DNA from: a virus
Virus record (IMG/VR): IMGVR_UViG_3300015360_000025
Direction: 5' to 3' (one strand)
Length of the DNA: 64,000 nucleotides
Of the stretch, positions 16,037-33,659 are shown piece by piece. The notes under the pieces were generated by a model, which saw nothing but the letters and a program-made list of their open reading frames with translations, was not told the DNA's origin and did no database searches. Within the stretch, counting starts at the first letter, position 1, and each line of letters starts with the position of its first letter. The position numbers and the translations under genes are program-made.

Positions 16037-16042
16037 GAGCAG

Positions 16043-16243
16043 GTGTCAGCTAAACCCGGGTCAACACCATGGAACAAAGGTTTAACAAGAGAAACGGATC
16101 CTCGTTTGCGCGGAGCTTCTGAAAAGAATAAGGGGAAGAAAAGAACTGAAGAGCAGAAACGGAGAATAGGCATCGGTACTAAGTTGGCAAATGGCACGTC
16201 GATCATATCAGAGGGATTTCTACTTTTCCTGTTGGAATTCTAG
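16043..16243 (+). pseudogene. NUMOD3-type homing-endonuclease remnant
   Basis: PWNKGLTRETDPRL...KGKKRTEEQKRRI with no catalytic domain; AT-rich. Confidence 0.55.
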
Positions 16244-16311
16244 CAAGCATTGTGAATGCCCTCGATAATCTTCAACCTTTGTGGGAAGAAGAAAATTTAA
16301 GGAATGGGTGA

Positions 16312-17223
16312 TTGATGTTACCGAGACCAGATAAAATAGAAGACACGATTCTTGTGACTCACATGGGGTGTATGGATGGATCGGGGGCGATGATTATGTT
16401 CGTCCGGGCTGGTGGTAAAAAGGAAAATGTCCACTTCGTTGCCGCCGGGATGCTTGAAAGGTTCATCAAGAACGATCTCGACGGCTTCAAGGGCAAGTTC
16501 GTCATCTTCGCAGACATCGGTCTCGCTGGTGACAAGGGATCAAAATACGCAGATATTCTTGAGAAGCGCGGGAACTGTGTCCTGATTGATCATCATGTTA
16601 CCTCTACTCACATGAAGGGCAAAGAGTGGTGCGACATTAGAATGGAGTCGTGCGGTACTGAGCTCCTCCGTCAATACTTGAAGCTTGAAGACGAGAGTTC
16701 GAAGGCCATGGCCGCGCTCATCCAGGATCACGACCTCTGGCTCCGGAATGACCCACGGTCGGTCGACCTGGCCGCCTTCACCGTGTTCGTTGGGCAGGAC
16801 ATATTCGTCGAGAGGTTCATGGATCGGGACGTGACGAAGGAGTTCTTCACTCCTCTTGAGACGGAGATGATGGCGATCATGATCCGGCGACGAGACCAGT
16901 TCATCGCCGCAGCAATCAGAAAGGTGATCGTGAAGGATGTCATCTGGGGAGATACGGATGAGAAGCTTGCCAAGGTCGGATACATTATCTCTCCAGAGAT
17001 GAATGTCTCCCTTCTCCTTGACACACTCCTGATCGAGAAACCAGAGCTTGACATCGGATGTCAGATCAACTTCGAGAAGGGGTCGGTTAGTCTGCGATCT
17101 AATCGCGGGTACGATGTGTCCGAGTTCGCTGAATACTACGGCGGTGGTGGTCACAAGGCAGCGTCGGGTCACAAAATCGCAGATGAGATCATGAAAGGAA
17201 TATTCGAGGAAATCCATGGCTGA
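16312..17223 (+). CDS. DHH/DHHA1 phosphoesterase (NrnB-like oligoribonuclease)
   Basis: THMGCMDG, FADI, LIDHH, SLRS, GGGHKAASG. Confidence 0.88.
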   Translation: MMLPRPDKIEDTILVTHMGCMDGSGAMIMFVRAGGKKENVHFVAAGMLERFIKNDLDGFKGKFVIFADIGLAGDKGSKYADILEKRGNCVLIDHHVTSTHMKGKEWCDIRMESCGTELLRQYLKLEDESSKAMAALIQDHDLWLRNDPRSVDLAAFTVFVGQDIFVERFMDRDVTKEFFTPLETEMMAIMIRRRDQFIAAAIRKVIVKDVIWGDTDEKLAKVGYIISPEMNVSLLLDTLLIEKPELDIGCQINFEKGSVSLRSNRGYDVSEFAEYYGGGGHKAASGHKIADEIMKGIFEEIHG

Positions 17224-18178
17224 GCATTGCATTGTTGGTAACAACTTCGATGACATCTATCGAGACCTGCTTCACGATCTCTCCTGGTCCCCGCAGTACA
17301 TTTGCAGTCCTAGGGGGCAGAAGATAAATGAGAACCTTGCTGTCACTCTTGTTCTGAATGATCCCAGGGCCCGCCTTCTCAGTTGTCAGAAGAGGAACAC
17401 AAACTACGGGTTCGCGGTCGGCGAGTTCCTCTGGTACTGGAACGGGAAGCAGGACCTCGAGACGATGCTGTACTACAACAAGAGGATGAAGGACTACTCT
17501 GACGATGGAAAGACCCTCAACTCAGCTTATGGGTTCAGACTCAAGGGGAGATTTGTTGGAGACGGATGTCCTTACATGAGCCAATGGGATGTGGCAAAAA
17601 AGACACTTCTTAGTGATTCTGATTCACGGAGATGTGTACTTCACATCAATGAACCCGAAGACCAGCATGATGCCGTTTCCGAAGGATCGAAGGATGTCCC
17701 ATGTACCCTCTCCCTCCAGTTCTTCATTCGTAACAATCGACTCGACCTTCATGTGCATATGCGATCCAATGACGTGATGTGGGGACTGACCTACGATCTC
17801 TTCAGCTTCACTCTCTTTCAGGAATGCATGATGCTTGAACTTCGGAAGGAAGAGAAGTTCAAAGACTTGCAGCTTGGAAGGTATTATCACACCGCTGGTT
17901 CTCTCCATGTCTACGAACAACACTTTCAGCAGGCGATGGACATTGTCAACGAGTATGCCACCTCCATCGTCTACAAGATGCCAATGGAACCGTTCGAAAG
18001 CCTCGAGGACTTCGATAGATTAGGTGACATTGAACAAGCATTGAGGACTGGACTGAGTACGAAGATCGTCTCGAACAACCTCATAGCTGGATTGTGTGAA
18101 TCTGCTGAGTGGATGGGAGACAAACTTCTTGATCATCGTGAAAAACGTGACAAGGAAGCTTTGAAGAAGATTGAGTAA
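17216..18178 (+). CDS. Thymidylate-synthase-fold enzyme, probably dCMP 5-hydroxymethyl(or methyl)transferase
   Basis: GEFLWY, NSAYG, DSRR, DVPC, MRSNDVMWGLTYD with Asp at the ThyA Asn position, GSLHVY. Confidence 0.75.
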   Translation: MAEHCIVGNNFDDIYRDLLHDLSWSPQYICSPRGQKINENLAVTLVLNDPRARLLSCQKRNTNYGFAVGEFLWYWNGKQDLETMLYYNKRMKDYSDDGKTLNSAYGFRLKGRFVGDGCPYMSQWDVAKKTLLSDSDSRRCVLHINEPEDQHDAVSEGSKDVPCTLSLQFFIRNNRLDLHVHMRSNDVMWGLTYDLFSFTLFQECMMLELRKEEKFKDLQLGRYYHTAGSLHVYEQHFQQAMDIVNEYATSIVYKMPMEPFESLEDFDRLGDIEQALRTGLSTKIVSNNLIAGLCESAEWMGDKLLDHREKRDKEALKKIE

Positions 18179-18185
18179 TTAGCCC

Positions 18186-18401
18186 ATGGGTAAGAGACGG
18201 GTCTGTTACGTCGTTCACTGGTCTGACGCGACGGGATGTCCAGAGAGTAGAATATACCCAAAGCTTGGGATTGGGCTAGTCAAGTTTATCTCAGATATCG
18301 GGAAGCAGCAGACTGGCGAACCGGTCGTTGAGCGGATCGTCCTATCCGATCTGACCAAAGAAGAAAAACGAAAGCTAAAGGAGATACAAGATGGCCAATG
18401 A
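18186..18401 (+). CDS. Hypothetical protein
   Basis: 71-aa ORF in operon. Confidence 0.6.
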   Translation: MGKRRVCYVVHWSDATGCPESRIYPKLGIGLVKFISDIGKQQTGEPVVERIVLSDLTKEEKRKLKEIQDGQ

Positions 18402-18774
18402 ATTTCTTGAAACTGAGTTCCGCTGTCGGTGTCTAAAAGTCGTCGATGGAGACACGGTCGACCTTTGCGTCGACATTGGTTTCCACGTCTCTTTCACCGG
18501 TCGCTTCCGTGTTCTCGGGATTGACACGGCTGAGATGAATTCCAAGGATGTCACAGAAAGGGCCGTGGCACTACTGGCCAAGGACAAGGTAACAGAGTTA
18601 CTCAAACCATCTCCGACGACCACTGGCTGGCCTCTGATGGTGCGGACAAAGAAGGACCCCGACAGCTTTGGTAGGTGGTTGGCTGACATCAGTTACTTTC
18701 TTCTAGACGGAACGAAGTTGGGCCTCGGCCCGATGCTGATCCTCGAAAGACTGGCGAAACCTTACAAGGGGTGA
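18391..18774 (+). CDS. Thermonuclease (SNase-like)
   Basis: VVDGDTV, RFRVLGIDTAE, DSFGRWLA. Confidence 0.88.
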   Translation: MANEFLETEFRCRCLKVVDGDTVDLCVDIGFHVSFTGRFRVLGIDTAEMNSKDVTERAVALLAKDKVTELLKPSPTTTGWPLMVRTKKDPDSFGRWLADISYFLLDGTKLGLGPMLILERLAKPYKG

Positions 18775-18777
18775 CCG

Positions 18778-19149
18778 ATGGCCGACCAAGACATGTTCGA
18801 AGACATCTTCGAACGACAGACACGTTTCATGGAAGAACTGCGAACCAGCGACAAGCTTCCAGAGTACCCGGTCGACCTGACGACCAAACCGGGACAACGT
18901 CTCATCAAGGAGACGATCTTCAACATGATCGAGGAGCTGGCGGAAGCCAGCTTCACCCTGAAGAACAGGATCCACCGTGTAACCGACGTCCGCGTGCTTG
19001 ACATCCAGCACTACAAAGAGGAGCTAGGCGACGCCATGGCCTACCTCATTGAGGTGTGCATCCTCTCAGGGTTCACACCACAAGAGATCTACGAGGAGTA
19101 CAAACGCAAGAACGCAGTCGTCTCTGAACGGCTGAAGAACGGGTACTGA
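18778..19149 (+). CDS. All-alpha NTP pyrophosphatase (MazG / dimeric dUTPase / dCTPase-like)
   Basis: MIEELAEA...YKEELGDAMAY...YKRKN. Confidence 0.8.
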   Translation: MADQDMFEDIFERQTRFMEELRTSDKLPEYPVDLTTKPGQRLIKETIFNMIEELAEASFTLKNRIHRVTDVRVLDIQHYKEELGDAMAYLIEVCILSGFTPQEIYEEYKRKNAVVSERLKNGY

Positions 19150-19150
19150 G

Positions 19151-19444
19151 ATGGACTTCGAACCAAACGTCGGACGAATCGTTGTAGAGGTAGACAACGC
19201 CGATACTAAGACCGATGGTGGTCTCTACATTCCGGGCAGTGTCGAACGGAACGGTGTGGTGAGGGGCACGATCAGGGCGGTCGGTCCGACCAGACTCGTC
19301 GACGGGGCCCCTACTGCTCTTCTTCTTTTCGTCGGGGATCGGGTGATGCTCGACCCGATTGGTGCGCCGAAGTTGAAGATCGAGGGGAAGGAGATGGTCC
19401 TCCTCCGTGCAGAGGACGTGGTAGGCCGTCTTCCTAGGGTATGA
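19151..19444 (+). CDS. groES: GroES co-chaperonin
   Basis: EPNVGRIVVE, TKTDGGLYIP, GTIRAVGP, GDRV, LLRAEDVVG. Confidence 0.88.
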   Translation: MDFEPNVGRIVVEVDNADTKTDGGLYIPGSVERNGVVRGTIRAVGPTRLVDGAPTALLLFVGDRVMLDPIGAPKLKIEGKEMVLLRAEDVVGRLPRV

Positions 19445-19911
19445 TCAACGATCAGGAGGCGTACAAAGAGAGTGTGGCTCAGACCATGATGGTTACCAAT
19501 CATCTGTTCTACCACGCTATCCCGTTTGATGCCAAAGAGCTTTCTCCAAAAGAGCAGCTCACCCATGGCGATGTGCGTCTCACTGGTCTTCCCAAAGAGA
19601 TGAGTCTAGAATTGAAGAGCGACGCCTCCTCCCCCGGGAGTGTTTGCATCTCCGTTGATCAGCTTGCCTCATTCGATAAGCGGGGGAAATACGTTTGCTC
19701 TCAGCGAGCTCCAGACGGAAAGTACTCCCATAGACTGACATGGGTTTTTGATACTGAGTTCGTGCATGGATACCTCAAGTCAGTCCCTCAAGCAAATCCG
19801 ATTGAACGCGCAGTGTATTCAGGAATAAGTAGCTTCTACAGGATCTTCATTTTCAAGAATCAACTCCACAACGCTGAGACATTAGAATCATTCGCGAGGC
19901 TGGTCAGATGA
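19441..19911 (+). CDS. Hypothetical protein, possible PD-(D/E)xK nuclease
   Basis: GDVR...SLELKSD pattern. Confidence 0.4.
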   Translation: MINDQEAYKESVAQTMMVTNHLFYHAIPFDAKELSPKEQLTHGDVRLTGLPKEMSLELKSDASSPGSVCISVDQLASFDKRGKYVCSQRAPDGKYSHRLTWVFDTEFVHGYLKSVPQANPIERAVYSGISSFYRIFIFKNQLHNAETLESFARLVR

Positions 19912-20297
19912 CAACTCCAAGGCTCACCAAGGTGTTCAAATCTGTTTTCCATGGTCAGGTGTACGAACTGAATGGCAAGGGATATGATGTGCCTGAGCTG
20001 ACCTACTGGTGCGTCGAGAACCTGGATTTACGGAACATTCCTCTCGTCGATCTCACCATGTCCAAGTCGGATGAGAAGCACGCGTCAAAAGAGTTCAAGA
20101 AGCACGCCAGAAAGGTCGATCACAAGGGTTACCCGATCGTGGTCGTGGCCAGGAGCGACGGCAAGTTACAGATCGCGGACGGAAACCACCGCGCCTTCAA
20201 AGCCGCCTCCGCTGGGGAGAAGACGATCGAGGGGTACATCATCCCCGAAGATCAACTTCCAGACTCGGCCCTGGCTGGCGAAGAGGAAGAGGAGTGA
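19908..20297 (+). CDS. ParB/Srx-like domain protein
   Basis: YPIVV...QIADGNHRAFKA. Confidence 0.7.
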   Translation: MTTPRLTKVFKSVFHGQVYELNGKGYDVPELTYWCVENLDLRNIPLVDLTMSKSDEKHASKEFKKHARKVDHKGYPIVVVARSDGKLQIADGNHRAFKAASAGEKTIEGYIIPEDQLPDSALAGEEEEE

Positions 20298-20461
20298 AGA
20301 CGGTATCGTTCGTAAAGCAGTGTCCACGGGATGTCTGTCTGATTCAAAATCGTGCACTCCCTCCTGAAAAAAGACTCGAGGAATACTACGTCCGGAAAAG
20401 CAATGTCCTCTCCAGACTTCTCACTTCGTAGTAATCTGTGTTACAATAACCAAGAGGACTC

Positions 20462-23368
20462 ATGATCAAGGACTTCGCCAGCTTTCACAACCACAGTCAC
20501 TTCTCCGTAATGGATGGTATCAGCCTTCCTGAGGAGATGATCAAGACTGCTAAGGCGAAGGGGTTAAAGTCCATTGCGATTACAGACCACGGGCACTGTC
20601 ACGGTCATGCCGACTTCTTCCTGTTCGGGAAGAAGCACGGCGTCCGTACTGTGTTCGGAGTCGAGGCTTACGTTATCCACGACTTGAAGGAGTGGCAGGA
20701 CCTCAAGGACTCAGCCGGCTTCGAGGACACACAGGAACGGGACTCCAACACTGCCGGTGATGACGAGGGGAAGAAACTCTCGAAGCAACTCTACCGTAAG
20801 GGACACCTAGTCCTCCTGGCGTGCAACAGGGAGGGTTTGGCGAACCTGTACCAGCTGACTTACAAGGCCCACAAGGATGGGTTTTACGCCAAACCCAGGA
20901 TGGACAAGAAGATGCTGGCCCAACATTCTAAGGGCGTCATCGCGACGTCTGCATGCATGGGCGGTGTCATCGCCAACAAGTGCTGGGACCTGAAGAACGG
21001 ACGAGGAGACTTCCAAGACATAGTCAACGAGGCGAAGGAGTTCGACGAGATCTTTGGCCGAGGACGTTTCTTCCTGGAACTCCAGTTCAACGAACACGAC
21101 GGACAAAGGTTCATCAACGAATTGCTTGTACGAGTTCACAAAGAGACAGGGATCCCGCTGACCGTAACTACCGACTCTCACTACACTCAGCCAGAAGAGT
21201 GGAAGGCTCAAGAGCTCCTCTACATGCTCCGGTCCAATAAGACCGTGACGACGCGTGGGGACAAGTGGGACTTCCAGGTCAAGCAGCTCTACATCAAATC
21301 TCCCGAAGAGATGTGGCAGACGTTTGAGAAGTTCGGCGGGATGCTTGAACCGAAGATCGCGCTTGAAGCATTCCAGAACACGATGCTCATCGACAGTCTG
21401 GTCGACGACTACGAGCCAGACACACACAAGCGACTACCTTCCCTTCCGTACGAAGACCCGTTCATGGAGATGATGGCTCGGGCCGTGAAGGGGCTCAAGG
21501 CCCACGGTCTGGCGCAGAAGGACGAGTACAAGACCCGTCTCCTTCACGAGATGAAGATTATCAAGGAGAAGGGGTTCGCCAACTACTTCCTCATCACCCA
21601 GCAGATCATCGAAGAGGCGCGCAAGACCATGATGGTCGGAGAGGGCCGTGGTTCGTCCGCGGCGTCACTCGTCTGCTACTGCTTGGGGATAACCGACCTT
21701 GATCCCATCGAACACGACCTGCTATTCGAGCGCTTCATGGACCCATCCAGAACTGAGGAGCCCGACATCGACATTGATTTTGAGGACGTTGAAGCGACTA
21801 AGGACATGCTTCGCCGAATGTTCGGCGAACAGAATGTAGCGTGTCTTTCCTCGTATGGTACCTTTCAGATCAAGGGTCTTCTGAAAGATGTTGGCCGGGT
21901 TTATGACCTGCCTGTTAAGGTCGTCAACGACGCCAACAAGAAGATCGAGAAAGAACTAAAGGTCCTCTACCTAAACCAGGACAAGAGCACCCTCGTCATC
22001 AAGTTGGAAGACGTGCAAAGAGTCAGTCAGACATTCCGAGAGCTGGTTGAGAAGTATCCGCTGGTAGGTGAGCACCTGACCAAACTTTACGGACGCAACC
22101 GACATTGCAGTCGACACGCCGCAGGTGTCATCATCGGCGATAACCTCCCGGCCGAGACTGCATTGTGGGTCCAAAAAGACAAAGATACGGGGAAGCAGAT
22201 CGTCCAGGCGTCCTTCACTGAAGGCATCGTCAACAAGAATGTCTCGGCGATGGGCTTCACCAAGTTCGACATCCTCTCCATCGCCACACTCAAGGTGATA
22301 CACTATGCCCTCAAGCTAATCTCCGAGAGGACCGGACGTCCAATAACGGAACTCCGAGAGATGGTCCGTTCGAAGAACATGAAGTTGAATGACCCGAAGA
22401 TCATGGAGCACTGCTTCTGGAACGGGAACTTTGCCGGGGTCTTCCAGTTCACTGAAAAGGGGATTCGACGTGTGGCGAAGAACGTCCATCCCGATACCTT
22501 TGTCGACATCTCAGCCATCTCTTCCATCTACCGTCCAGGTCCATTGGCTGGCGGCTTTGACAAACTCTACGCTCACAACAAACACCATCCTGAAGATGTG
22601 ACCTACGAGCATCCGCTGCTTGAGTCAATTCTGAAGAAGACACGTGGTTGTATCGTGTTCCAAGAACAGCTGATGCAGATCTGCAACTCTCTGGGCAAGA
22701 TGTCGTGGAAAGACGTGAATGCCGTACGCAAGGTTCTACTGAAGAAGGACAAGAGCAAGACAGAAGAGTTCCTTAAGTCAGAGAACGAACGTCTCGCCGG
22801 ACTGTTCTACAAGGGGTGCGAAGAGAACGGCTACCCTCGATACATTGTGACCGGGACTGAAAAGAAGAAGGACGAGAAGGGTGAAGAGAAGGAAGTTGAG
22901 ATCAGAATTCCGAAGGCGGAGAAGCTCTGGAATGACCTGCTTGCGTTCGGTGGCTACGGATTCAACAAAAGTTTGCACTTTGCTCAACGAATTGCTATTT
23001 ATAGTAACGGGAACGTAATCTCTAAGGAAATCAAGGACGTACAAAAAGGTGATTTAGCATTTTCTCGTGATGAAAAAAGCGGCAAAATATTTTTAGAACC
23101 AATCGTTGCTCTTCATGACCACGGAGAACTTGAGTTAATAGAATTTACGATGGATGATGGGAGTACTGTGCGATGCACGGCAAATCACAAGTTCAGGACG
23201 ACGACCGGAGAGATGTCACGAATCTCAGAGATTATGGCCAGAGACTTGGAGATCGTCTCGTTTGCAGACTTTGCGCCACTAGTGTCAGATCAGCTTCTCA
23301 TTGGGAAGCAGGACGTTGTAAACAAGCTCATGTCTGTAAATGTGGAGCAGAGTTCATCGGAACGATAG
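20462..23368 (+). CDS. dnaE: DNA polymerase III alpha, N-terminal part + split intein N-half
   Basis: PHP HNHSHFSVMDG, GRGSSAAS, PDIDIDF, KFDIL, FQF, YRPGP, IVFQEQ, GYGFNK followed by intein. Confidence 0.95.
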   Translation: MIKDFASFHNHSHFSVMDGISLPEEMIKTAKAKGLKSIAITDHGHCHGHADFFLFGKKHGVRTVFGVEAYVIHDLKEWQDLKDSAGFEDTQERDSNTAGDDEGKKLSKQLYRKGHLVLLACNREGLANLYQLTYKAHKDGFYAKPRMDKKMLAQHSKGVIATSACMGGVIANKCWDLKNGRGDFQDIVNEAKEFDEIFGRGRFFLELQFNEHDGQRFINELLVRVHKETGIPLTVTTDSHYTQPEEWKAQELLYMLRSNKTVTTRGDKWDFQVKQLYIKSPEEMWQTFEKFGGMLEPKIALEAFQNTMLIDSLVDDYEPDTHKRLPSLPYEDPFMEMMARAVKGLKAHGLAQKDEYKTRLLHEMKIIKEKGFANYFLITQQIIEEARKTMMVGEGRGSSAASLVCYCLGITDLDPIEHDLLFERFMDPSRTEEPDIDIDFEDVEATKDMLRRMFGEQNVACLSSYGTFQIKGLLKDVGRVYDLPVKVVNDANKKIEKELKVLYLNQDKSTLVIKLEDVQRVSQTFRELVEKYPLVGEHLTKLYGRNRHCSRHAAGVIIGDNLPAETALWVQKDKDTGKQIVQASFTEGIVNKNVSAMGFTKFDILSIATLKVIHYALKLISERTGRPITELREMVRSKNMKLNDPKIMEHCFWNGNFAGVFQFTEKGIRRVAKNVHPDTFVDISAISSIYRPGPLAGGFDKLYAHNKHHPEDVTYEHPLLESILKKTRGCIVFQEQLMQICNSLGKMSWKDVNAVRKVLLKKDKSKTEEFLKSENERLAGLFYKGCEENGYPRYIVTGTEKKKDEKGEEKEVEIRIPKAEKLWNDLLAFGGYGFNKSLHFAQRIAIYSNGNVISKEIKDVQKGDLAFSRDEKSGKIFLEPIVALHDHGELELIEFTMDDGSTVRCTANHKFRTTTGEMSRISEIMARDLEIVSFADFAPLVSDQLLIGKQDVVNKLMSVNVEQSSSER
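22970..23365 (+). mobile_element. Split intein N-half (132 aa, Ser1)
   Basis: SLHFAQRI block A, VRCTANHKF block B, then stop codon. Confidence 0.88.
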
Positions 23369-24156
23369 GTATTAATTCTGATTTTAAGTCTCATAAGAAG
23401 ACGTGCGAAATTTACAGTTCTTGGCGAAATGAAACAAACATTAAAAACGGACGGCGCGGTTACGCTTCCATAGTCGAGCGCGGTGAAGTTGAGGTGTGGA
23501 AAGAAAAGATTGGGAAGGCTGTCAGTAAAACTATTGTCTCAAATCCACAAGAGATAATGAGGCGTCAGGAATTGAGTAAGACGACAATAACGGCTTGGGC
23601 AGTATCAAAAGAGGGACGAAGAAAATCGTCAGAGACTGCGATTAAGACATCTGCTAGACCCGAAATACAGAAAGTTAGAGCTACTGTCTTGAAAAGATGG
23701 AGAGACGAGAACCCCGAGGAATTCTACCAGAAATCAATCGTTGCTATGCACACAGTATTCGTCTCCAAGCCACAGGTAAGACTCTCAGAAGAATGTAAAA
23801 AAATTGACGATGGTTTCAAACATAACCAGCAGATTAAAAATCTTGAATTCACAAATAAAACGCACAGACGTCAATTAGATGTTTTACATGCCGAAAAGAA
23901 AATTGTCGTAGAATTTGACGGACCCGTTCACTTCAAGAAATTTAGAAAGAATCAAGATCTAGAGAAAACAAAGAGGCACGATGAAGAGATGAACGAGGTA
24001 CTTTCGCGTATTGGTTATGCCGTTGTTCGTATTTCCTACGAAGATTATGATCATCGACGTGGTGGATCTTTTTCAGCCCGCGCATTGAATGTGATAAGAT
24101 CTCTAGTGGAGAAACAAAACCCAGGCATATACAAGATTGGGGGTGCATATTCCTAA
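23173..24156 (+). CDS. Free-standing Vsr/DUF559-like homing endonuclease between the intein halves
   Basis: LDV...VVEFDGPVHF...GYAVVRI; AT-rich; different frame, overlapping both dnaE parts; true start uncertain. Confidence 0.8.
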   Translation: MHGKSQVQDDDRRDVTNLRDYGQRLGDRLVCRLCATSVRSASHWEAGRCKQAHVCKCGAEFIGTIGINSDFKSHKKTCEIYSSWRNETNIKNGRRGYASIVERGEVEVWKEKIGKAVSKTIVSNPQEIMRRQELSKTTITAWAVSKEGRRKSSETAIKTSARPEIQKVRATVLKRWRDENPEEFYQKSIVAMHTVFVSKPQVRLSEECKKIDDGFKHNQQIKNLEFTNKTHRRQLDVLHAEKKIVVEFDGPVHFKKFRKNQDLEKTKRHDEEMNEVLSRIGYAVVRISYEDYDHRRGGSFSARALNVIRSLVEKQNPGIYKIGGAYS

Positions 24157-24259
24157 GATAATTTCAGCTAAAAACATAGGCAAGCATCAGACATTCGATA
24201 TCGAGCTCGCTCACGAAGACCATCAGTTTTTTCTGGAAAACGGTTTGTTGACATCAAAC
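24137..24259 (+). mobile_element. Split intein C-half (about 41 aa)
   Basis: Blocks F/G ending TSN before Ser+1; TTG (or GTG 24143) start. Confidence 0.88.
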
Positions 24260-25258
24260 TCACACTCTGACGCATACTCAGTTATGACCATGCAGTGTGC
24301 GTTCCTGGCCACCTATTATCCTCGGGAGTTTTACGCCGCCCTACTTACCAAGGGGCAGTCCGGGGACCTTCAACAGTACGTTAGCGATATCCAACGCACG
24401 GGCATCAAAATCCTTCCGGTCAGCATCAATTCCAGCCAGGGTACACACGTGATCGACGGGAACACCATCCGGCTCGCATTGAACTCCGTACCAGGAGTTG
24501 GACAGTCGGCCGTCGAAAAGATCATGGCACACCAGCCGTATAGTGATTTCCACGACTATATCCGAAGATCTGGTGTTGGAAAGACGGCCACGGCCCCTCT
24601 CATCCTTGCTGGCGCGTTCGACTGCGTCTATCCAAACATGAAGGACCTCGACATAAACTACGCGTACTACAACGAGTTTCCAGATTACAAGAGGAAGACG
24701 CGAGCCAAAAATAAGCCAGACGCCAAGTGTTGGGACGATTGGATCAAATTCTTCGATGAGGAGAACATGAGCGAAGACTACACTCTAGCTGAGAAGGTCG
24801 GACACGAGAACGAACTTTTCGACTTTTCTCTCCGTGGTTCCCCATTTGAGATCCTCGATAGGATGGACAAGATCGAGAAGTATCTCGCCGAGAAGGCTGG
24901 TGAGCTTACCGTTATTCACTACGATCTCGACTACGTCCAGGCGATCAAGAGCAAAGTCGAAGTGATTTGTATTCCAGTGACAATCAGAAGAATCTTCGAG
25001 AAGCCACAGCGTAACGGTCAGATGTTCTCGTTCCTTACGTTCTCAACGTTTGACGAAGTGGAATTCGATGCCCCCTGCTTCTCTACAATATGGAAATGGA
25101 TCAAGCCAATCACCAAGAAGGGGACGGTGTACATGGCTGTCTTTAACAGAAAGCTTGGAGAAGAAGCGGAGAACCTGGTAGTCGGAAGACCGGGCTTCAG
25201 TCACTCTGGTGCATCATCCTTAAAGTACATGTTCGACGTGGATCAGATCAAACTTTGA
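24137..25258 (+). CDS. dnaE: Split intein C-half + DNA polymerase III alpha C-terminal part
   Basis: TFDIEL...HQFFLENGLLTSN|SHSDAY...YYPREFYAALL, ILPVSIN, VPGVG HhH. Confidence 0.92.
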   Translation: MGVHIPKIISAKNIGKHQTFDIELAHEDHQFFLENGLLTSNSHSDAYSVMTMQCAFLATYYPREFYAALLTKGQSGDLQQYVSDIQRTGIKILPVSINSSQGTHVIDGNTIRLALNSVPGVGQSAVEKIMAHQPYSDFHDYIRRSGVGKTATAPLILAGAFDCVYPNMKDLDINYAYYNEFPDYKRKTRAKNKPDAKCWDDWIKFFDEENMSEDYTLAEKVGHENELFDFSLRGSPFEILDRMDKIEKYLAEKAGELTVIHYDLDYVQAIKSKVEVICIPVTIRRIFEKPQRNGQMFSFLTFSTFDEVEFDAPCFSTIWKWIKPITKKGTVYMAVFNRKLGEEAENLVVGRPGFSHSGASSLKYMFDVDQIKL

Positions 25259-25515
25259 CAGGAGAGAACTCGATGATCAAGATCCATTGGTGGGAAGATG
25301 CGCAGGGTCGTTATACTTGTCACAAGAACGATCGTGGACTCTCATTCAAAGAGAGCTTTCTCGGCGAACTAAAACGCGGTAGTGGTGCACCCGAAACATG
25401 GTATTTCATCATCGCCAATACTGATGACGTTGTCGGTCCATTCAAACACATGGGAGCAGCGAGGCGAGCTCTCGAGGCCGCTGTGGGTGGTGAACCCATA
25501 ACTACTTGGGACTGA
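25255..25515 (+). CDS. Hypothetical protein
   Basis: Short coupled ORF. Confidence 0.55.
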   Translation: MTGENSMIKIHWWEDAQGRYTCHKNDRGLSFKESFLGELKRGSGAPETWYFIIANTDDVVGPFKHMGAARRALEAAVGGEPITTWD

Positions 25516-25523
25516 GAGGAAAC

Positions 25524-26621
25524 ATGGCCAACGATATCTGCTTAGTAATTCCGACGATCAGGGAAAATTCTTTTAACGACTTCGTGAAGCGCTGGAGCGC
25601 GATTGGTCTGTTCGAGCATACTGACCTGCTCATCATGGAGGACAATCCGACCAAGACCTTCGACATCCAGAACAGCGTCAGCAACGGGATCCCCTGTACG
25701 TTGGGTCACTTTGCCTGGGACTCCATCGCCAAGAGCCTGGGAGATGAAGAGTGGATCATCCCCCGACGGTCAGACACGGTCCGCAGCTTCGGGTACCTCG
25801 AAGCATACCGTCGAGGGTACAAGTTCATTCTTACCCTGGATGACGATTGCTACCCGACGGGGGAGGAGGATGGTGTCACCTACACTGGCGCTGGATTCCT
25901 CGGCGATCACCTCAAGCAGATCACTAAGCGTTCCCGGTGGTTCAACACACTAAATTCAGTGAAGCCACGTGGAATTCCGTTCTACAACGTCGGAGTCCAG
26001 AAAGAAGTAATCGTGAACCATGGTCTCTGGACGAAGGTTCTTGACTACGACGCTCCTTTCCAACTCGCCAATCCGATTCCTGAGCAGTATTCGTTTGACA
26101 ATCGCATCATTCCTTCAGGACTCTACTTCCCGATGTGCGGCATGAATGTCATGTGGAAGGCCGAAGCTACGGTCCTCATGTATCATCTCCTTATGGGGAG
26201 GCGGAAGGCGATGCTGGACAACGTCCCGGGAGCGGACGAGCATGACCTCGTGAAGCTGCCCTTCGATCGCTTCGGTGACATCTGGTGTGGCATCCTGATG
26301 AAGAAGGTAGCCGATCACCTCGGGAAGTTGGTGTCCACTGGCATGCCATACATTAGGCACGAGCGCGCATCCAATCCATTCACCAATCTGAAGAAAGAAG
26401 CGAATGGGATCGAGGTCAACGAAGACCTGTGGCAGTTCATAGATGACATGGATCTCACGGGGACAGAGAAGGGAGTAAGCCCATATGTGTCTGCCTACAC
26501 GAGGATCGGTCTCTATATGAAAGAGTTCACGTCTCTTTATCCAAAGTACAAGGAACATGAGGAGTACTTCAAGTTACTGAGTCTGGCGATGGTTACATGG
26601 GCAGATCTGTTTAAGGAGTGA
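25524..26621 (+). CDS. RGP / GT75 family protein (UDP-arabinopyranose mutase-like)
   Basis: VIPTIR, TLDDDC, PRGIPF (conserved Arg), NHGLW...DYDAP, FPMCGMN, RFGDIWCG, TGMPYIRHERASNPFTNLKKE. Confidence 0.88.
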   Translation: MANDICLVIPTIRENSFNDFVKRWSAIGLFEHTDLLIMEDNPTKTFDIQNSVSNGIPCTLGHFAWDSIAKSLGDEEWIIPRRSDTVRSFGYLEAYRRGYKFILTLDDDCYPTGEEDGVTYTGAGFLGDHLKQITKRSRWFNTLNSVKPRGIPFYNVGVQKEVIVNHGLWTKVLDYDAPFQLANPIPEQYSFDNRIIPSGLYFPMCGMNVMWKAEATVLMYHLLMGRRKAMLDNVPGADEHDLVKLPFDRFGDIWCGILMKKVADHLGKLVSTGMPYIRHERASNPFTNLKKEANGIEVNEDLWQFIDDMDLTGTEKGVSPYVSAYTRIGLYMKEFTSLYPKYKEHEEYFKLLSLAMVTWADLFKE

Positions 26622-27799
26622 TTGTGAACCACGTTTGTCAAATATGCGGACAAGCTTTTCGTAGGCCTGGATCACGACCTGTCGCAACATGCGGTAAATC
26701 ATGTCGTGGCATTTCGCTTTCGAGAAAAATGAGCGGAAACGGAAATCCGATGTTCGATAAGGTAGGTTCAGATCATCCGAAATTTGGAAAGAGAGGAAAT
26801 TCTCTGCCGTCTGGGTGGAAACATTCGAGTGAGACCAAGACAAAGCTTCGTGAGTCTTGGCTTAAACGTACGAAAAATGGGACCGTTCTCGGCAATTTGA
26901 AGTTCAAGATGGGAGAATACATATCTAAAAAAACTGGCCGCCGCGAAATATTCCATTCATCTTACGAGAAGACGAGGATGGAGTTTTTGGACATGTCACA
27001 AGATGTCATTGACTGGACGAAGCAACACGGCATCTCTATACCGTACGAATTTCGGGACGCAGAGCATCTATACATTCCTGATTTCCTTGTAACGTGGATG
27101 GACGGCCAAAAGACATTAGAAGAAATAAAAGGCTTCGTCAAGGATCAGAAGCAGCTTTTCGCAAAGAATATGGCTGCTGTCTCATACGCAGAAGACAACG
27201 GCTTGATATTCCGTCTTCTCCAAAAAAGAGACCTTGTCTCTCCAAAGAAGCATCGTGTATTTTTTCTCGAAGGACCAGACAATTGTGGGAAATCACATAT
27301 TGGGCGCGGACTTTCGCAACATCTGACGATTCCTTATTTCAGGTTTTCGCGACAGCACGAGATGTGGACCAAGAACCAATTTAAGACTGCACTAGAGTTT
27401 GATCAGCCTTTACTTGTTTCGTTCTTGGGACAGACGAAATCTGATGTAATTGTAGATCGCGGATATGCATCAGAATTTGTTTACTCAAAGGTCTTCGGGA
27501 GAGAGACAAATCGAAAAGTACTTGAATATGTAGACAAAAAATTTTCAGAATTGGGAGCCGTATTCCTCATCTTTCTACGTCGTGATTATTCGAAGAATGG
27601 CGGCGACGTCGTCGTCCCAGACGAGAAATTGTTGGAGCTCCACGAAGAATATCTGAAGTTTGTCGATTGGACGAGGTGCTCGTGTATCGTGATGTATGTC
27701 GATGATCTTGGTAATGACCTAAAGCTTCAAGTAGTTTCGTTGCAGTCAGCCATGGACATGGTCGATCTCTCTGTTGGAAAAAATATCATCTTCACATGA
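26618..27799 (+). CDS. Fusion: NUMOD3/TnsA-like endonuclease + dNMP (thymidylate-kinase-like) kinase
   Basis: N-terminal CxxC, GWKHSSETKTKL, FHSSYE...YIPDF...EEIKG; C-terminal EGPDNCGKS P-loop, IVDRGYASEFVY. Confidence 0.8.
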   Translation: MIVNHVCQICGQAFRRPGSRPVATCGKSCRGISLSRKMSGNGNPMFDKVGSDHPKFGKRGNSLPSGWKHSSETKTKLRESWLKRTKNGTVLGNLKFKMGEYISKKTGRREIFHSSYEKTRMEFLDMSQDVIDWTKQHGISIPYEFRDAEHLYIPDFLVTWMDGQKTLEEIKGFVKDQKQLFAKNMAAVSYAEDNGLIFRLLQKRDLVSPKKHRVFFLEGPDNCGKSHIGRGLSQHLTIPYFRFSRQHEMWTKNQFKTALEFDQPLLVSFLGQTKSDVIVDRGYASEFVYSKVFGRETNRKVLEYVDKKFSELGAVFLIFLRRDYSKNGGDVVVPDEKLLELHEEYLKFVDWTRCSCIVMYVDDLGNDLKLQVVSLQSAMDMVDLSVGKNIIFT

Positions 27800-28251
27800 A
27801 GAAAGAGAACGCCATCTACTTCCAGAGCAAGGGGTATCAAGAGTTTCGTTTCATGAGTAACTTTTACGCTGCACCGTTCAGCGTTGGACCAGCTTTGTAT
27901 CCAACTGTCGAGCACTACTACCAAGCATCGAAGGCGACCAATATGGACGACTTCAGGCATGTCATGGCTGCCACGACACCAGGCGAAGCAATGAGACGTG
28001 GGCGATCAATCCAGACTCCGCTATCCTGGGAACACATGAAGATCGAAGTCATGACACGTGCATGTCGAATGAAATTCGAGCAGAATACTGACCTCAAAGA
28101 GATGTTGCTAGCTACGGAAGGATTCGAGCTGGTGGAGTACGCTCCCTGGGGCGATACATTTTGGGGAGTAGGGAAGGACTACGTAGGACAGAACAACTTG
28201 GGAATCATCCTGATGCAAGTCAGGACCGAACTGAAAGAGAGGACAAAATGA
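27796..28251 (+). CDS. NADAR (YbiA-like) protein
   Basis: FMSNF, YPTVEHYYQA, KFEQN, LLAT, DTFWG, GQNNLG..LM.VR. Confidence 0.92.
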   Translation: MKKENAIYFQSKGYQEFRFMSNFYAAPFSVGPALYPTVEHYYQASKATNMDDFRHVMAATTPGEAMRRGRSIQTPLSWEHMKIEVMTRACRMKFEQNTDLKEMLLATEGFELVEYAPWGDTFWGVGKDYVGQNNLGIILMQVRTELKERTK

Positions 28252-28652
28252 AGAAGATTCGAACCGTAGACGTGAGCACACTGTTCAAGCTGGCGGAGGG
28301 ATTCCTGAATAACAGGACCAAGACCCACCGTGTCACTGGTAACTTCGGCCTGTTCAGGGCCATGATTTCCTTGTTCCTAGGGAGGGTCGCCTTGTATTTG
28401 ACGACTATTGCTTTCAGAATCCTTCCGAAAGAGCAACCTCTCAAGCTCCCGGATACCCTGGTCCGTCCAGCGCTCGTCGAGATGGCAACCGAAAAGCTGC
28501 CAGATCGCAAGGTCGACAACCTCGGGTCGTACGGACCAGCCATTTACGCTCCCGTCACCCCTGGACGGTATGCTGGGGTACGAACAGAAGATGTGATTCA
28601 GACAGACATAGCCGAGATGAATAAGGGCTTCGGGACCACTGGTAAGAAATGA
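28248..28652 (+). CDS. Hypothetical protein
   Basis: ATG 28248 with GAGG RBS, coupled at both ends. Confidence 0.6.
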   Translation: MKKIRTVDVSTLFKLAEGFLNNRTKTHRVTGNFGLFRAMISLFLGRVALYLTTIAFRILPKEQPLKLPDTLVRPALVEMATEKLPDRKVDNLGSYGPAIYAPVTPGRYAGVRTEDVIQTDIAEMNKGFGTTGKK

Positions 28653-29758
28653 GGATCGGCTACTCCTACTGGGGATTTCTCGGTGACCGCAAGCTGGGTG
28701 CCGATGGGAAGGAGATCTCTGCTCCAGACGGGAACGCCACATACTCGTGGAGCTTGATCTGGGAGATGCAGAGGCGTGGTCACACGGTCCTGGCAATGCA
28801 AGAGGACCGTGACTACCAGGCATGGAAGATGTGGGGGACCTTGAACTTCGAAGCATTCTCCCAGATGAAGCGGACCGAGGCGTACACAAACCTCAAGCAT
28901 ACGTTCGGCTCATCGGAGATCCTACCTAAGTTGGACATCCTGCTCGTCGAGTGGAGGTTCCCGATCCCAGGTCGAAACTGCAGTGAGTCTGATGGGACGA
29001 CGTACTCGTACAACGAGAACGAGCATCAGCCAGATTATCATCGCCAGATGCAGATGCTCCTTCACTACAAGACGAAGGGGACTAAGATTATATTCTGGGA
29101 TCTCGACCACAAGCTCACAGAGCACGATGAACGTCACTGGAATCCGGACGCCATCTTCGAAACATCCGTAACCCCTCTGAAGCTCTTCAAGGAGCGGACC
29201 AGGGTAGAACCACCCTTCATCATCTCTGATCTCATGCAGCATCCCACACTCCCTCCAGACCACAGTCGTAAGTTGGTTTACATCGGTAGCCGATACGAGA
29301 GGGACGACGTTATTGATGAATGGATCAAACCTGCTTCACTGAGATACCCGGGAGAGATTGAGTTTCACGGGAAGTGGGATGACGAGGCGAAGGCACGTTG
29401 GCCGCAGGTTAAGATGGAGAAGCGTTGCGCAGTCGTCGATTTCCGCCAGATCTATGGGACGGCCGGGGCGTGCCCACTGCTGGCGAAGAGGAGTTACCTC
29501 GAATCGGGATTCATCACGCCACGTCCTTGGGAGGCGTTGCTCTTTGGAACAATCCCCATTGGTCTGAGTTCGATGAAGGGAATCGAACAGTACGTGACAT
29601 TCGTCGCTCAGGATTCGCTAGATATGATTGACCTAGCAGATACACTGATCGATAACGGTGTCGAGTACAGGGACGAAATGCGCCGAGCCAACGTAGAAAA
29701 GCTGGAGTTCATGGATGCTCGACACTTTGTGGACAAGGTTGAAAATGTCGCTGGTTGA
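28649..29758 (+). CDS. GT-B glycosyltransferase, T4 beta-glucosyltransferase-like (candidate DNA glycosyltransferase)
   Basis: KLVYIGSR, IEFHG, SYLESGFITPRPWEA, RDEM resemble BGT DVIYGGS/IEFFG/NFITLRVWET/RKEM (BGT recalled from memory). Confidence 0.7.
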   Translation: MRIGYSYWGFLGDRKLGADGKEISAPDGNATYSWSLIWEMQRRGHTVLAMQEDRDYQAWKMWGTLNFEAFSQMKRTEAYTNLKHTFGSSEILPKLDILLVEWRFPIPGRNCSESDGTTYSYNENEHQPDYHRQMQMLLHYKTKGTKIIFWDLDHKLTEHDERHWNPDAIFETSVTPLKLFKERTRVEPPFIISDLMQHPTLPPDHSRKLVYIGSRYERDDVIDEWIKPASLRYPGEIEFHGKWDDEAKARWPQVKMEKRCAVVDFRQIYGTAGACPLLAKRSYLESGFITPRPWEALLFGTIPIGLSSMKGIEQYVTFVAQDSLDMIDLADTLIDNGVEYRDEMRRANVEKLEFMDARHFVDKVENVAG

Positions 29759-30104
29759 CACTAAAAAGGAGTTGCACGTGGCCAAGAGAATCGTGAAGTT
29801 CGCAGTGACCGACGGACGGAAGCCTTCCAGGACAGAGGAGGTCGGTAAGCCATTCGCCTTGAAGATTCCGATCGCTCTCAAACTGGCGGCGGGGCAGTCA
29901 CGTCGGGTCAAGCTGGGATTGAGCTGCAACCTTCCCACCGTGATCGTGGGGAAGCAGGGAAGTCTCCTATTCAGCCCGGGCAAGGAGCTCGAGGTCGACA
30001 TCGTCGGTGAGGGACCTGGACAAGAAGTCCTGAACATTGGTGAAGGAGAGGTCATCGCCAAGGCGTTCCCGATCGACAGTTCCGGTCTAGACTTCGCGGA
30101 GTGA
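29745..30104 (+). CDS. Degenerate dUTPase-fold-like protein
   Basis: LAAGQSRRVKLGL...GEVIA beta-strand pattern, catalytic motifs absent. Confidence 0.35.
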   Translation: MSLVDTKKELHVAKRIVKFAVTDGRKPSRTEEVGKPFALKIPIALKLAAGQSRRVKLGLSCNLPTVIVGKQGSLLFSPGKELEVDIVGEGPGQEVLNIGEGEVIAKAFPIDSSGLDFAE

Positions 30105-30310
30105 TAATGTTTGAACTCGTGGCAGCAGCTACCGCTTTCGCAGGTCTGTTAATCTTCGTCAGGCTCGTCGGTTCCGCGAGGAAGCGTCGCCGAGAACAGA
30201 CGGACGATGAGGTAGACTTCGACGATTGGAAGAAAGGTTCTCCAAACGATCCGCTTCCACCCGGCGCCGTACCCGTCAAGCAAACAGGTATCAAAGATGA
30301 ATCGTCCTAG
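30101..30310 (+). CDS. Small membrane protein
   Basis: N-terminal TM helix. Confidence 0.55.
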   Translation: MIMFELVAAATAFAGLLIFVRLVGSARKRRREQTDDEVDFDDWKKGSPNDPLPPGAVPVKQTGIKDESS

Positions 30311-30740
30311 CTTCGACAATGTCTACATGAATCTCGCTCTCATGTTGGCGGCGAGGAGCACGTGTTCCCGCCTCCATGTGGGATGTGTCGTCGTATCAGG
30401 TGACAATCAACGTGTACTCGCGATCGGTTATAACGGATCGTACCGTGGTGGACCGAACGGTTGTGACTCGTCTGAACCTGGCAACTGCGGGTGTTTACAC
30501 GCCGAGGACAACTCTCTAATAAAGATGAACTACAATGATCCCGCAGAGAAGAAACTTTACACAACGATCATGCCCTGCGTCTATTGCGCTAAACGGATCG
30601 TAAATGCCGGAGTCGGAGAAGTTATCTATCTCTATGCGTACAGGAAAACGGAAGGTCTCCAAGTCCTCGCGTCGGCGGGCGTCAAAGTCCGGCAGCTCGC
30701 GCCGGGGGACATACTGTTCGTCGAAGACCGGAAAGACTGA
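30297..30740 (+). CDS. dCMP deaminase (ComEB-like)
   Basis: STCSRLHVGCV, GYNG, HAEDN, PCVYC. Confidence 0.92.
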   Translation: MNRPSFDNVYMNLALMLAARSTCSRLHVGCVVVSGDNQRVLAIGYNGSYRGGPNGCDSSEPGNCGCLHAEDNSLIKMNYNDPAEKKLYTTIMPCVYCAKRIVNAGVGEVIYLYAYRKTEGLQVLASAGVKVRQLAPGDILFVEDRKD

Positions 30741-31044
30741 GAAGTACGACTCTTCCTATGAACTCCGGAGGTTCATAGCTCTAGATGCTTCTCCACTCGT
30801 GGAGACGTGGACAAAACAACACGGGCTGAAGATCAGGTACACCATGCTCGGAAGACGTCACAGGTATCATCCAGACATTCTTGTGATTTACCACGACGGT
30901 CGGAAATTTGTGGAAGAGATCAAAGGTAAAGTATGGGATCGATTGGCATTTGGCCTGAAGAACCTGGCCGCCATCTCCCACTGCGCCATGTACGGGATGA
31001 AATACCGAGTGGTGTTCCGGGAACAACTCGAGTTGGTCGTATAG
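30634..31044 (+). CDS. TnsA-N / gp4-like endonuclease
   Basis: YDSSYE...WTKQHG...YHPDIL...EEIKG; overlaps the deaminase 3' end; start uncertain. Confidence 0.7.
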   Translation: MRTGKRKVSKSSRRRASKSGSSRRGTYCSSKTGKTEKYDSSYELRRFIALDASPLVETWTKQHGLKIRYTMLGRRHRYHPDILVIYHDGRKFVEEIKGKVWDRLAFGLKNLAAISHCAMYGMKYRVVFREQLELVV

Positions 31045-31063
31045 TTACATTTGGAGGCCGAAA

Positions 31064-31420
31064 ATGAAGAAGACGATCACCAAGCAGGATGGCTCTGTCG
31101 AAGTCGTAGAAGGCACGGCGGAAGAGATAGCGGATTACGAGCGTAAGCTCAAGGGTCAGCCAGTTCTCGAGGCTCCCAAGCCCGGTCCTGGACTCCTAAC
31201 CGACGACCTTCGCCGTCTCCTTCAGTACAGTCCGTTTGAATCAGGATACCGTATCGATCACGGACCGACCTGCCAGCTCACCGTCGCCCAGCAGGGATGG
31301 TGGTCCATCAACCCTCCGATGTGCACCTGCGGATTGATCGCCTACCCCATCCATGGTGGTACCATTCGCTACACGACTGGGACTAACATCCCTGTCGCAG
31401 GTTTACCAGATCGGTCGTGA
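31064..31420 (+). CDS. Hypothetical protein
   Basis: GGAGG RBS; 118 aa. Confidence 0.6.
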   Translation: MKKTITKQDGSVEVVEGTAEEIADYERKLKGQPVLEAPKPGPGLLTDDLRRLLQYSPFESGYRIDHGPTCQLTVAQQGWWSINPPMCTCGLIAYPIHGGTIRYTTGTNIPVAGLPDRS

Positions 31421-33625: not shown

Positions 33626-33659
33626 CGCAAGGGAGGCATGTTGAACCCGGGGTGACGCT

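Follow-up and report, generated by a model that had tools for sequence, protein, structure and literature searches.

A gene module of an uncultured phage predicted to make furanosyl-5-hydroxymethylcytosine DNA with a donor from a GT75 mutase

A stretch of 64,000 nucleotides from the IMG/VR virus record IMGVR_UViG_3300015360_000025 (hereafter the window) carries a gene set that, judged from its sequence, most likely replaces cytosine with 5-hydroxymethylcytosine (5hmC) and decorates it with a five-membered-ring sugar. The set includes a ThyA homolog, a protein of the GT75 family (hereafter RGP, after its Pfam family), a nucleotide kinase and a GT-B glycosyltransferase (GT) that resembles the beta-glucosyltransferase (BGT) of phage T4. 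The window comes from an uncultured phage of ~190 kb; the contig on which its proteins are recorded is 187,020 bases long. We put the probability of the full mechanism, in which the DNA contains 5hmC that is glycosylated with a furanose from a donor supplied by RGP, at roughly 0.55; a glycosylated 5hmC with a sugar of any form is rather likely. With slightly less than even odds, a widespread environmental lineage of ~190-200 kb phages and at least one unrelated phage with a PolA-type polymerase may carry an undescribed base, 5-(furanosyloxymethyl)cytosine, made by a new BGT-related glycosyltransferase family with a donor from a phage GT75 mutase. The comparative evidence is the main support for this proposal and its strongest line.

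In the proposed pathway, the ThyA homolog would convert dCMP to 5-hydroxymethyl-dCMP, and the kinase, together with a host NDP kinase, would take this product on to hydroxymethyl-dCTP. The MazG-like pyrophosphatase would remove dCTP by analogy with T4 gp56, and the dCMP deaminase and ThyX would route excess nucleotide to dTTP by analogy with T4 Cd and Td. The hydroxymethylated cytosine would be incorporated by the DnaE polymerase of the phage. After replication, GT would put a sugar on the hydroxymethyl group, with Glu101, which corresponds to BGT Asp100, as general base. The donor would come from RGP, which would contract a host NDP-pyranose to an NDP-furanose; Arg155 is its likely nucleophile, and Mn2+ would be held by a DDD motif and His285. 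The end product would be DNA carrying furanosyl-5hmC. Through its hydroxymethylase, NTP pyrophosphatase, kinase, dCMP deaminase and ThyX the module thus mirrors the 5hmC pathway of T4, in which the gp42 dCMP hydroxymethylase, the gp1 dNMP kinase, the gp56 dCTPase, Cd and BGT together lead to glucosyl-5hmC. A furanosyl-5hmC pathway was also the proposal of the initial annotation of this DNA. Its cytosine- and deoxy-type hydroxymethylase, its BGT-like GT and the linkage of the genes held up, whereas the sugar and its nucleotide carrier are not readable from the sequence.

The same genes are found together in relatives of the phage. A search of IMG/VR with RGP returned nine loci (48-62% identity), and in all nine the genes for RGP, the kinase and GT are adjacent and in the same order. 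A dCMP deaminase gene follows downstream in eight of the nine, MazG is likewise present in eight, and all five loci that extend far enough upstream contain the ThyA homolog. A profile search with GT yielded 22 loci (28-62% identity). Here the ThyA homolog lies within 10 kb of GT in 14 loci and just beyond that distance in two more; it is the immediate neighbor of GT in three (L024, L029, and L030), and in the T4 record b-gt directly adjoins gene 42. In every reasonably complete record examined, the GT family is linked to a ThyA homolog of the hydroxymethylase type. The kinase is located beside or near GT in all loci but four (it was not detected in L028, L029, L030, and L032; in L031 it was detected by Pfam only). 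RGP accompanies GT in 14/22 GT loci, L031 among them, and all linked ThyA homologs that were recovered are of the hydroxymethylase type; the co-occurrence of RGP, a BGT-like enzyme and an Asp-type ThyA homolog had been put forward by the initial annotation as a check on its proposal. Because the same grouping recurs in relatives at 35-62% identity, the clustering of these genes is far above chance. In a tree of the GT family the RGP-linked members cluster, with two label changes against a mean of 5.9 for shuffled labels, a result that kinship alone could give.

An independent replication background is represented by L031, a contig of 52.8 kb with a family-A (PolA-type) polymerase. It encodes, in an operon of overlapping open reading frames (ORFs), a dCMP deaminase, the ThyA homolog, MazG, a kinase resembling dNK and TMPK, RGP, a UDG-superfamily protein, GT and the polymerase, in that order, with 35% identity to the window for RGP and 41% for GT. 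The module has therefore moved, or has been kept, as a unit across replication backgrounds, which argues that RGP serves a DNA-modification pathway. The UDG-superfamily gene of this contig, at 9252-10004, lies between RGP and GT inside the modification operon.

The ThyA homolog matches Pfam Thymidylat_synt (PF00303; E 3.9e-20), and its closest solved relatives are the CMP hydroxymethylase MilA (E 8e-36) and then the dCMP hydroxymethylase of T4 (E 1e-13; pairwise BLASTP 9e-18). The catalytic cysteine, equivalent to Cys146, is kept in a DVPC motif that aligns with MilA and the T4 enzyme. The residues that set the substrate and the reaction in this fold can be compared directly with characterized enzymes. 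Asp in place of Asn177 (E. coli numbering) marks cytosine specificity, and an acidic residue at the Leu143 position admits water and marks the hydroxymethylating type (PMC13326640). The window protein has Asp at both positions (motifs RSNDVMWGLTYD and DVPC), and the cytidylate-type Asp claimed for this gene by the initial annotation indeed aligns with Asn177. For the sugar of the nucleotide, Lys133 and Ala176 of MilA favor ribo-CMP, and introduction of Arg and Ser at these positions reversed its preference to dCMP (PMC5175136). The window protein carries the deoxy-type pair, equivalent to Arg126 and Ser167, in the motifs DSRRCV and RSND (DSKRAV and RAND in MilA). The RSND motif holds Asp169 as well as Ser167. 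Every 5-hydroxy-dCMP synthase tested by Lee et al. (2026) has Asn instead of Asp169 (PMC13326640); this signature of 5-hydroxycytosine (5hoC) synthases is absent from the window protein, which keeps Asp169, and from the 14 linked homologs recovered, and the residue signature of hydroxymethylases is present in 14/14 of the latter. The active-site residues thus point strongly to conversion of dCMP to 5-hydroxymethyl-dCMP, and with Asp169 retained the predicted product is 5-hydroxymethyl-dCMP rather than 5-hydroxy-dCMP.

No Pfam, PHROG or PDB sequence match was found for GT, and searches of the PDB with the single sequence or a profile of 30 sequences were empty or returned noise. Its homologs number 512, and every named one is labeled hypothetical. 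An AlphaFold model (AF2) built from an alignment of 30 of the 512 homologs has a mean pLDDT of 93.8 and shows the two Rossmann domains of the GT-B fold (Foldseek, VIA-align; Z about 22). T4 BGT (family GT63; 1qkj) superimposes with Z 21.8 and a root-mean-square deviation of 3.4 over 304 residues at 16% identity, and T4 alpha-glucosyltransferase (AGT) with Z 21.1. The D100A mutant structure of BGT (1nzd), altered at the position of the proposed general base, is also among the structural matches. In BGT, Asp100 acts as the general base and the FITxRxWE motif binds the diphosphate of the donor. When the b-gt product, taken from the T4 record, was aligned with the GT family profile by hhalign, both elements found a counterpart: TD100IRLPF of BGT pairs with VE101WRFPI, YGGSFRSGQR with YIGSRYER, and FITLRVWE with FITPRPWE. 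In a MAFFT alignment that combines BGT with 19 members of the family, the three motifs likewise fall in register and vary little; Glu101 at the Asp100 position is invariant in 19/19, and the Arg and Glu of FITxRxxE are kept in all 19 as well. With modest confidence, the alignments suggest that the family is a distant relative of BGT, and it probably shares the inverting mechanism of that enzyme. From the motifs and the gene linkage, we predict 5hmC in duplex DNA as the acceptor. For the earlier description of this gene as BGT-like, support comes from the GT-B fold of the model and, at a weak level, from the profile alignment with its motifs; direct sequence comparison with Pfam, PHROG and the PDB adds nothing to it.

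RGP matches Pfam RGP (PF03214) over its full length (residues 9-370; E 9.1e-38, 130.7 bits against a cut-off of 23.8). In the PDB it matches MtdL (E 5e-16, 61.6 bits) and a solved UDP-arabinopyranose mutase (E 5e-14, 55 bits) about equally. Mutagenesis of MtdL established the residues essential to its activity: the DXD motif and a His bind Mn2+, and an Arg is the nucleophile and becomes autoglycosylated (PMC9937993). For the essential residues Asp87, Asp109-111, Arg159, Asp195, Arg257, Asp260 and the Mn2+ ligand His287, the window protein has counterparts; Gln229 alone differs, being Met here and in 132/135 sequences of the branch. Each of the mutase-critical residues of RGP itself (DDD112-114, Arg155, Asp180/182, Arg255, Asp258, and His285) is kept in 119 or more of the 135 branch sequences, and each except Asp182 in 127 or more. 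Its sequence places the protein in a large GT75 branch with microbial and viral members, which comprises 1083 clusters at 50% identity (full HMMER scan, E up to 0.001). The motifs VIPTIR, CGMN and HERASNPFxNLKKE of the protein look plant-like. The description of the mutase as plant-type was nevertheless overstated, as GT75 is not specific to plants and the two solved enzymes score alike.

On family membership and gene linkage, RGP is predicted to be a pyranose-furanose mutase. UDP, arabinose and galactose, all named in the initial annotation as parts of the donor, are none of them readable from the RGP sequence. UDP-galactofuranose made from UDP-galactose, a common host metabolite, is at least as plausible a donor as UDP-L-arabinofuranose, and as a guess we would rank UDP-D-galactofuranose before UDP-L-arabinofuranose and the latter before a GDP-L-sugar. 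Plant class 1 enzymes of the family work with UDP. The bacterial enzymes MtdL and Hyg20 use GDP-sugars (GDP-L-galactose or GDP-L-fucose) (PMC9937993). Among the window ORFs scanned, none encodes a GDP-mannose 3,5-epimerase.

The remaining enzymes of the pathway are assigned with varying confidence. The gene at 26618, claimed to encode a dNMP kinase, is a fusion: its first ~204 residues form a zinc-finger and TnsA-like endonuclease part, and a P-loop kinase of ~190 residues (~205-393) follows in frame, so that the kinase claim holds for the second part and not for the start of the ORF. In twelve relatives the kinase is free-standing, with ~160-190 residues, and the TnsA-like part is absent from all relatives; it is a mobile insert specific to the window and lies outside the pathway. 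A profile of the kinase matches YorR of SPbeta (E 6.8e-9), and its model (pLDDT 87) gives Z 16.0 to YorR, 15-16 to thymidylate kinases and 15.5 to a deoxynucleoside kinase. The P-loop (GPDNCGKS) and a DR motif are present. This thymidylate-kinase or deoxynucleoside-kinase fold, as modeled, fits the role of a dNMP kinase; it does not imply kinship to T4 gp1, structures of which are not among the 50 structural matches listed for the model.

The MazG-like gene is present where the initial annotation placed a MazG- or dCTPase-like gene, and is recognized as such by both Pfam dUTPase_2 (dimeric-dUTPase-like; 24.5 bits against a cut-off of 22.9, E 3.8e-5) and phrog_12184, a nucleotide pyrophosphohydrolase family (E 1.9e-13); its protein has no sequence match in the PDB. 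In relatives, distant ones included, it adjoins the ThyA homolog, and by its position a role as dCTPase is plausible. A DHH phosphoesterase gene, whose 3' end overlaps the start of the ThyA homolog by 8 nt, has relatives in L001, L002, L007, L009, L016, L018, and L020, in several of them just upstream of the ThyA homolog; it possibly encodes a nuclease of nucleotide salvage. A small ORF that follows GT is present in some relatives and may, as a lead only, have a dUTPase-type fold according to its predicted structure. The small ORF preceding RGP has tblastn matches of 30-49% identity in L001-L006 and L008 and no Pfam or PHROG match.

Several observations weigh against the full pathway. Five phage records that encode GT and the ThyA homolog lack RGP over their whole length, and two of the five are at least 90% complete; the GT family therefore needs no furanose donor, and RGP is an extra component, one that probably alters which sugar is donated. 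In the relatives G001 and G002, a large sugar locus lies apart from the module, at a distance of ~90 kb, with GT4, GT9 and GT2 enzymes, a UDP-sugar dehydrogenase, a UGE/UXS-like SDR, an HldD-like SDR, and an HldE-like kinase and nucleotidyltransferase. This locus could be the real user of the furanose donor, or else the source of the pyranose precursor. For a route from UDP-glucose to UDP-L-arabinopyranose, G001 offers a single UDP-sugar dehydrogenase and a single UGE/UXS-like SDR; its other SDR is of the HldD (heptose epimerase) type, so that the route is not demonstrably complete. The sole RGP match among 50,697 phage records (38% identity) comes from LR756511 (L010), a phage of 595 kb. Its neighbors, at 204-209 kb of LR756511.1, are two sulfotransferases, a methyltransferase and an F5/8-type-C domain protein, and no GT-B or ThyA gene adjoins it. 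RGP is therefore not always a DNA-modification gene, and the context points to a furanoside glycan, sulfated or methylated, that has nothing to do with DNA. All three observations would suit a phage in which 5hmC carries an ordinary host pyranose, such as glucose in T4, and RGP feeds a separate glycan locus or acts as a transferase. We regard this as unlikely, as RGP is never found in the sugar locus and always lies between the polymerase or kinase genes and GT, and L031 keeps it within a coupled nucleotide-modification operon; the clustering of RGP-linked GTs in the tree points the same way, subject to the effect of kinship. A different uncertainty comes from the nucleotide-specificity residues of RGP, which are mixed. 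The window protein has Pro, a plant-like residue, at the position of MtdL Thr13, and the T13P substitution weakened GDP binding by MtdL (PMC9937993); at MtdL Ser86/Asp87 it has Ser-Asp, as in the GDP-using enzyme, a position that varies within the branch.

The acceptor of GT has also to be weighed. The structural scores of the model are statistically tied among PimA, BshA, TarM, tll1591, T4 BGT and T4 AGT, and the GT4 enzymes in this tie act on acceptors other than DNA, so the fold alone does not name the acceptor. The hhalign match to BGT is weak (234 columns, E 1e-4, probability 57%), and GT has no match to the Pfam families of T4 glucosyltransferases. A phage with plain 5hmC DNA, and a GT-B enzyme that acts on a protein, a lipid carrier, teichoic acid or a small molecule, would account for these results. 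It is improbable in view of the linkage of the GT family to a hydroxymethylase-type ThyA homolog in every reasonably complete record examined, the specific correspondence of its motifs to the catalytic base and the UDP-binding residues of BGT, and the location of GT, which has replication genes around it and not structural or lysis genes. The modified base itself might be of the RB69/DLP3 type, with the ThyA homolog making 5-hydroxy-dCMP and the sugar ether-linked directly to C5; furanoses on phage cytosine have so far been documented on 5hoC only (PMC13326640). The chance of this is very small, as the exchange of Asp169 for Asn is missing from the window protein and the 14 linked homologs recovered, the nearest solved relatives of the ThyA homolog are hydroxymethylases, and neither an arabinose-5-phosphate isomerase nor the kinase/nucleotidyltransferase or HAD set was found among the window ORFs scanned. 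The RB69-type reading of the ThyA homolog was rejected on the retained Asp169. Taken against these alternatives, furanosyl-5hmC with a donor from RGP is the reading we favor.

The T4 system shares with the window module the overall logic, the enzyme classes, the hydroxymethylase residues, the GT-B fold and the positions of the BGT motifs, and the adjacency of b-gt and gene 42 is matched by distant members of the GT family. In contrast to T4, the window GT has Glu for Asp100 and aligns to BGT at the level of hhalign only, the kinase has a thymidylate-kinase/YorR fold, the pyrophosphatase is MazG-like and the replicase is DnaE. The GT75 mutase is an addition, as T4 has no donor-remodeling enzyme. 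Another close system is that of the Rhizobium phage RL38J1 (Pootjesviridae), for which a phage UDP-galactopyranose mutase and DNA glycosyltransferases have been proposed (Lee et al., NAR 2026, PMC13326640). There, too, a phage pyranose-to-furanose mutase is proposed to feed the glycosylation of a modified cytosine, and the best structural match of one of the glycosyltransferases is likewise tll1591 (7fg9). The mutase of RL38J1 is an FAD-dependent Glf/UGM enzyme unrelated to GT75, however, and its base is 5hoC made by a D169N ThyA homolog, whereas 5hmC is predicted for the window. The statement of the initial annotation that it knew of no phage pathway supplying the donor in this way accordingly needs qualification, since a mutase-fed DNA glycosylation, of the Glf/UGM type, has already been proposed. 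A full-text literature search turned up no publication that connects GT75/RGP with DNA modification in phages.

RB69 and DLP3 carry arabinofuranosyl-5-hydroxycytosine, and build UDP-D-arabinofuranose from ribulose-5-phosphate independently of a mutase (PMC13326640); the arabinosyl-5hmC ascribed to RB69 in the initial annotation is thus outdated. These phages resemble the window in placing a furanose on a C5-modified cytosine and in entering the pathway through a ThyA homolog and a dNMP kinase. They differ in the 5hoC base, in a flavin-dependent ThyA homolog, and in the route to the donor, which runs through an isomerase, a kinase/nucleotidyltransferase and a phosphatase. The characterized GT75 mutases (MtdL and Hyg20, and the plant UAM/RGP enzymes for UDP-L-arabinose and UDP-D-galactose) have in common with the window protein the full-length Pfam RGP domain, the DXD motif, the nucleophilic Arg and the equivalents of Asp195, Asp260, Arg257 and His287. 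The window RGP has low identity to both types (62 and 55 bits) and mixed specificity residues, and its context is DNA modification, whereas theirs is cell wall or antibiotic synthesis. MilA, from the mildiomycin pathway, is the best solved relative of the ThyA homolog and likewise has Asp at 143 and 177; it differs in the Lys and Ala that favor ribo-CMP, where the window has Arg and Ser.

The module lies in a block of nucleotide-metabolism and replication genes at 13-36 kb, on the + strand, which carries essentially all plausible genes of the window (Table 1). The block encodes an intein-bearing ribonucleotide reductase, the DHH phosphoesterase, the ThyA homolog, the MazG-like protein, GroES and an interrupted DnaE polymerase, followed by RGP, the kinase, a NADAR protein, GT, the dCMP deaminase, ThyX and an NT5C deoxyribonucleotidase. 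According to the ORF list, the genes named in the initial annotation are all present at or near the coordinates claimed for them. The tight run it described is real, with overlapping stop and start codons at 26618/26621, 27796/27799 and 28649/28652, and ThyX is separate, as it had stated. A near-identity search of 50,697 phage records found no DNA-level match for 17000-31000, and tblastn of GT against the same records found none either. Counts in a promoter and terminator scan of 16000-35000 were at chance level, and an Rfam scan of 13000-36000 returned no family.

Table 1. Features of the module and its surroundings in the window, with the evidence for each assignment.
Feature	Position	Strand	Evidence or remark
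DHH/DHHA1 phosphoesterase	16312-17223	+	Pfam DHHA1, E 2.7e-6
ThyA-fold dCMP 5-hydroxymethylase, predicted 5-hydroxymethyl-dCMP synthase	17216-18178	+	Pfam Thymidylat_synt and residues
MazG/all-alpha NTP pyrophosphohydrolase, candidate dCTPase	18778-19149	+	Pfam dUTPase_2, PHROG
Small ORF	25255-25515	+	Upstream of RGP in most relatives
GT75/RGP protein, predicted NDP-pyranose to NDP-furanose mutase	25506-26621 (probable ATG 25524)	+	Pfam RGP
Zinc-finger and TnsA-like endonuclease domain, in frame with the kinase	26618-27229	+	Pfam Tn7_TnsA-like_N, E 1.1e-9
P-loop nucleotide kinase domain, candidate hydroxymethyl-dCMP kinase	27230-27799	+	YorR profile match and model
NADAR domain protein, window-specific accessory	27796-28251	+	Pfam, E 1.6e-33
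ORF, window-specific	28161-28652 (likely start near 28248)	+	Absent from relatives
GT-B glycosyltransferase, distantly like T4 BGT; predicted 5hmC-DNA glycosyltransferase	28649-29758	+	Predicted structure and profile alignment
Small ORF, dUTPase/dCTP-deaminase fold possible	29715-30104	+	ESM Atlas, TM 0.68 to dUTPase clusters
dCMP deaminase	30297-30740	+	Pfam, E 2.1e-18; kept downstream of GT in relatives
ThyX flavin-dependent thymidylate synthase, normal dTMP supply	33845-34792	+	Pfam Thy1, E 5.7e-24

Two genes between the kinase and GT do not belong to the module. NADAR, which had been counted as part of the run, is there, but as a window-specific insert rather than a pathway member: it is absent from the nine RGP loci and the 22 GT loci examined. 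The following ORF has no Pfam or PHROG match, and an atlas search gave nothing usable. Both were rejected as members of the pathway, as they are absent from all relatives. As a NADAR enzyme, the protein of this phage may reverse DNA ADP-ribosylation in counter-defense.

The region is dense in inserts that resemble homing endonucleases, namely the TnsA-like domain at 26618-27229, a second TnsA-like endonuclease domain at 30604-31044, overlapping the dCMP deaminase gene at its 3' end, and an endonuclease at 18391-18774. The large subunit of ribonucleotide reductase (13316-16036) contains an intein with an HNH endonuclease (barrel, residues 83-855; Intein_splicing, 276-558; HNH_3, 396-438). DnaE is interrupted, with an N-terminal ORF at 20462-23368 and a C-terminal ORF (HHH_6) at 24137-25258, and an ORF for a DUF559-type endonuclease (23173-24156) lies between the two halves in another frame. 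In relatives such as L001, DnaE is one continuous gene; L021 carries an insertion at a comparable site. In the DnaE insertion of the window Rfam detected no group I intron, and the interruption may be due to an intron or an intein, or the gene may be truly split.

Other genes of the window include a phage-encoded GroES (Cpn10) homolog at 19151-19444, between the MazG-like gene and DnaE, an ORF of 1552 residues at 214-4872 with a cytidylyltransferase-like domain at residues 1039-1195, and a group of RNA-repair-type genes at 50982-54171 (RNA ligase, 50982-52082; UvrD-like helicase, 52262-53725; HAD_SAK_2 phosphatase, 53722-54171). The NT5C-type 5'(3')-deoxyribonucleotidase is encoded at 35947-36513, downstream of ThyX, and a second copy of this family is present inside the distant sugar locus of G001. 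That locus (L035/L036, at ~21-39 kb of the G001 record) adjoins a PD-(D/E)XK nuclease; its kinase is of the PfkB type, and it also encodes a multi-glycosyltransferase protein of 1055 residues, two methyltransferases and a cupin.

Glycosylated 5hmC, furanosylated 5hoC and a mutase-fed pathway have all been published, which limits the surprise of the present proposal. The furanosyl-5hmC base, the GT family and the GT75 donor step are, as predicted here, all undescribed. If the proposal is true, furanosyl-5hmC would join the hypermodified DNA bases of phages as the first case of a furanose on 5hmC, and GT75 enzymes would have their first role in nucleic-acid modification, which would give a physiological role to a large microbial and viral branch of that family. 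A large, unannotated family of BGT-related DNA glycosyltransferases, with 512 homologs, would be defined, and could serve in the labeling of 5hmC. Phages would then diversify the sugar on 5hmC in a modular way, by adding a gene for donor remodeling. The module would represent a sugar variant of the T4-style escape from host nucleases, and would bear on the escape from type IV restriction, glycosylase-based defenses and CRISPR.

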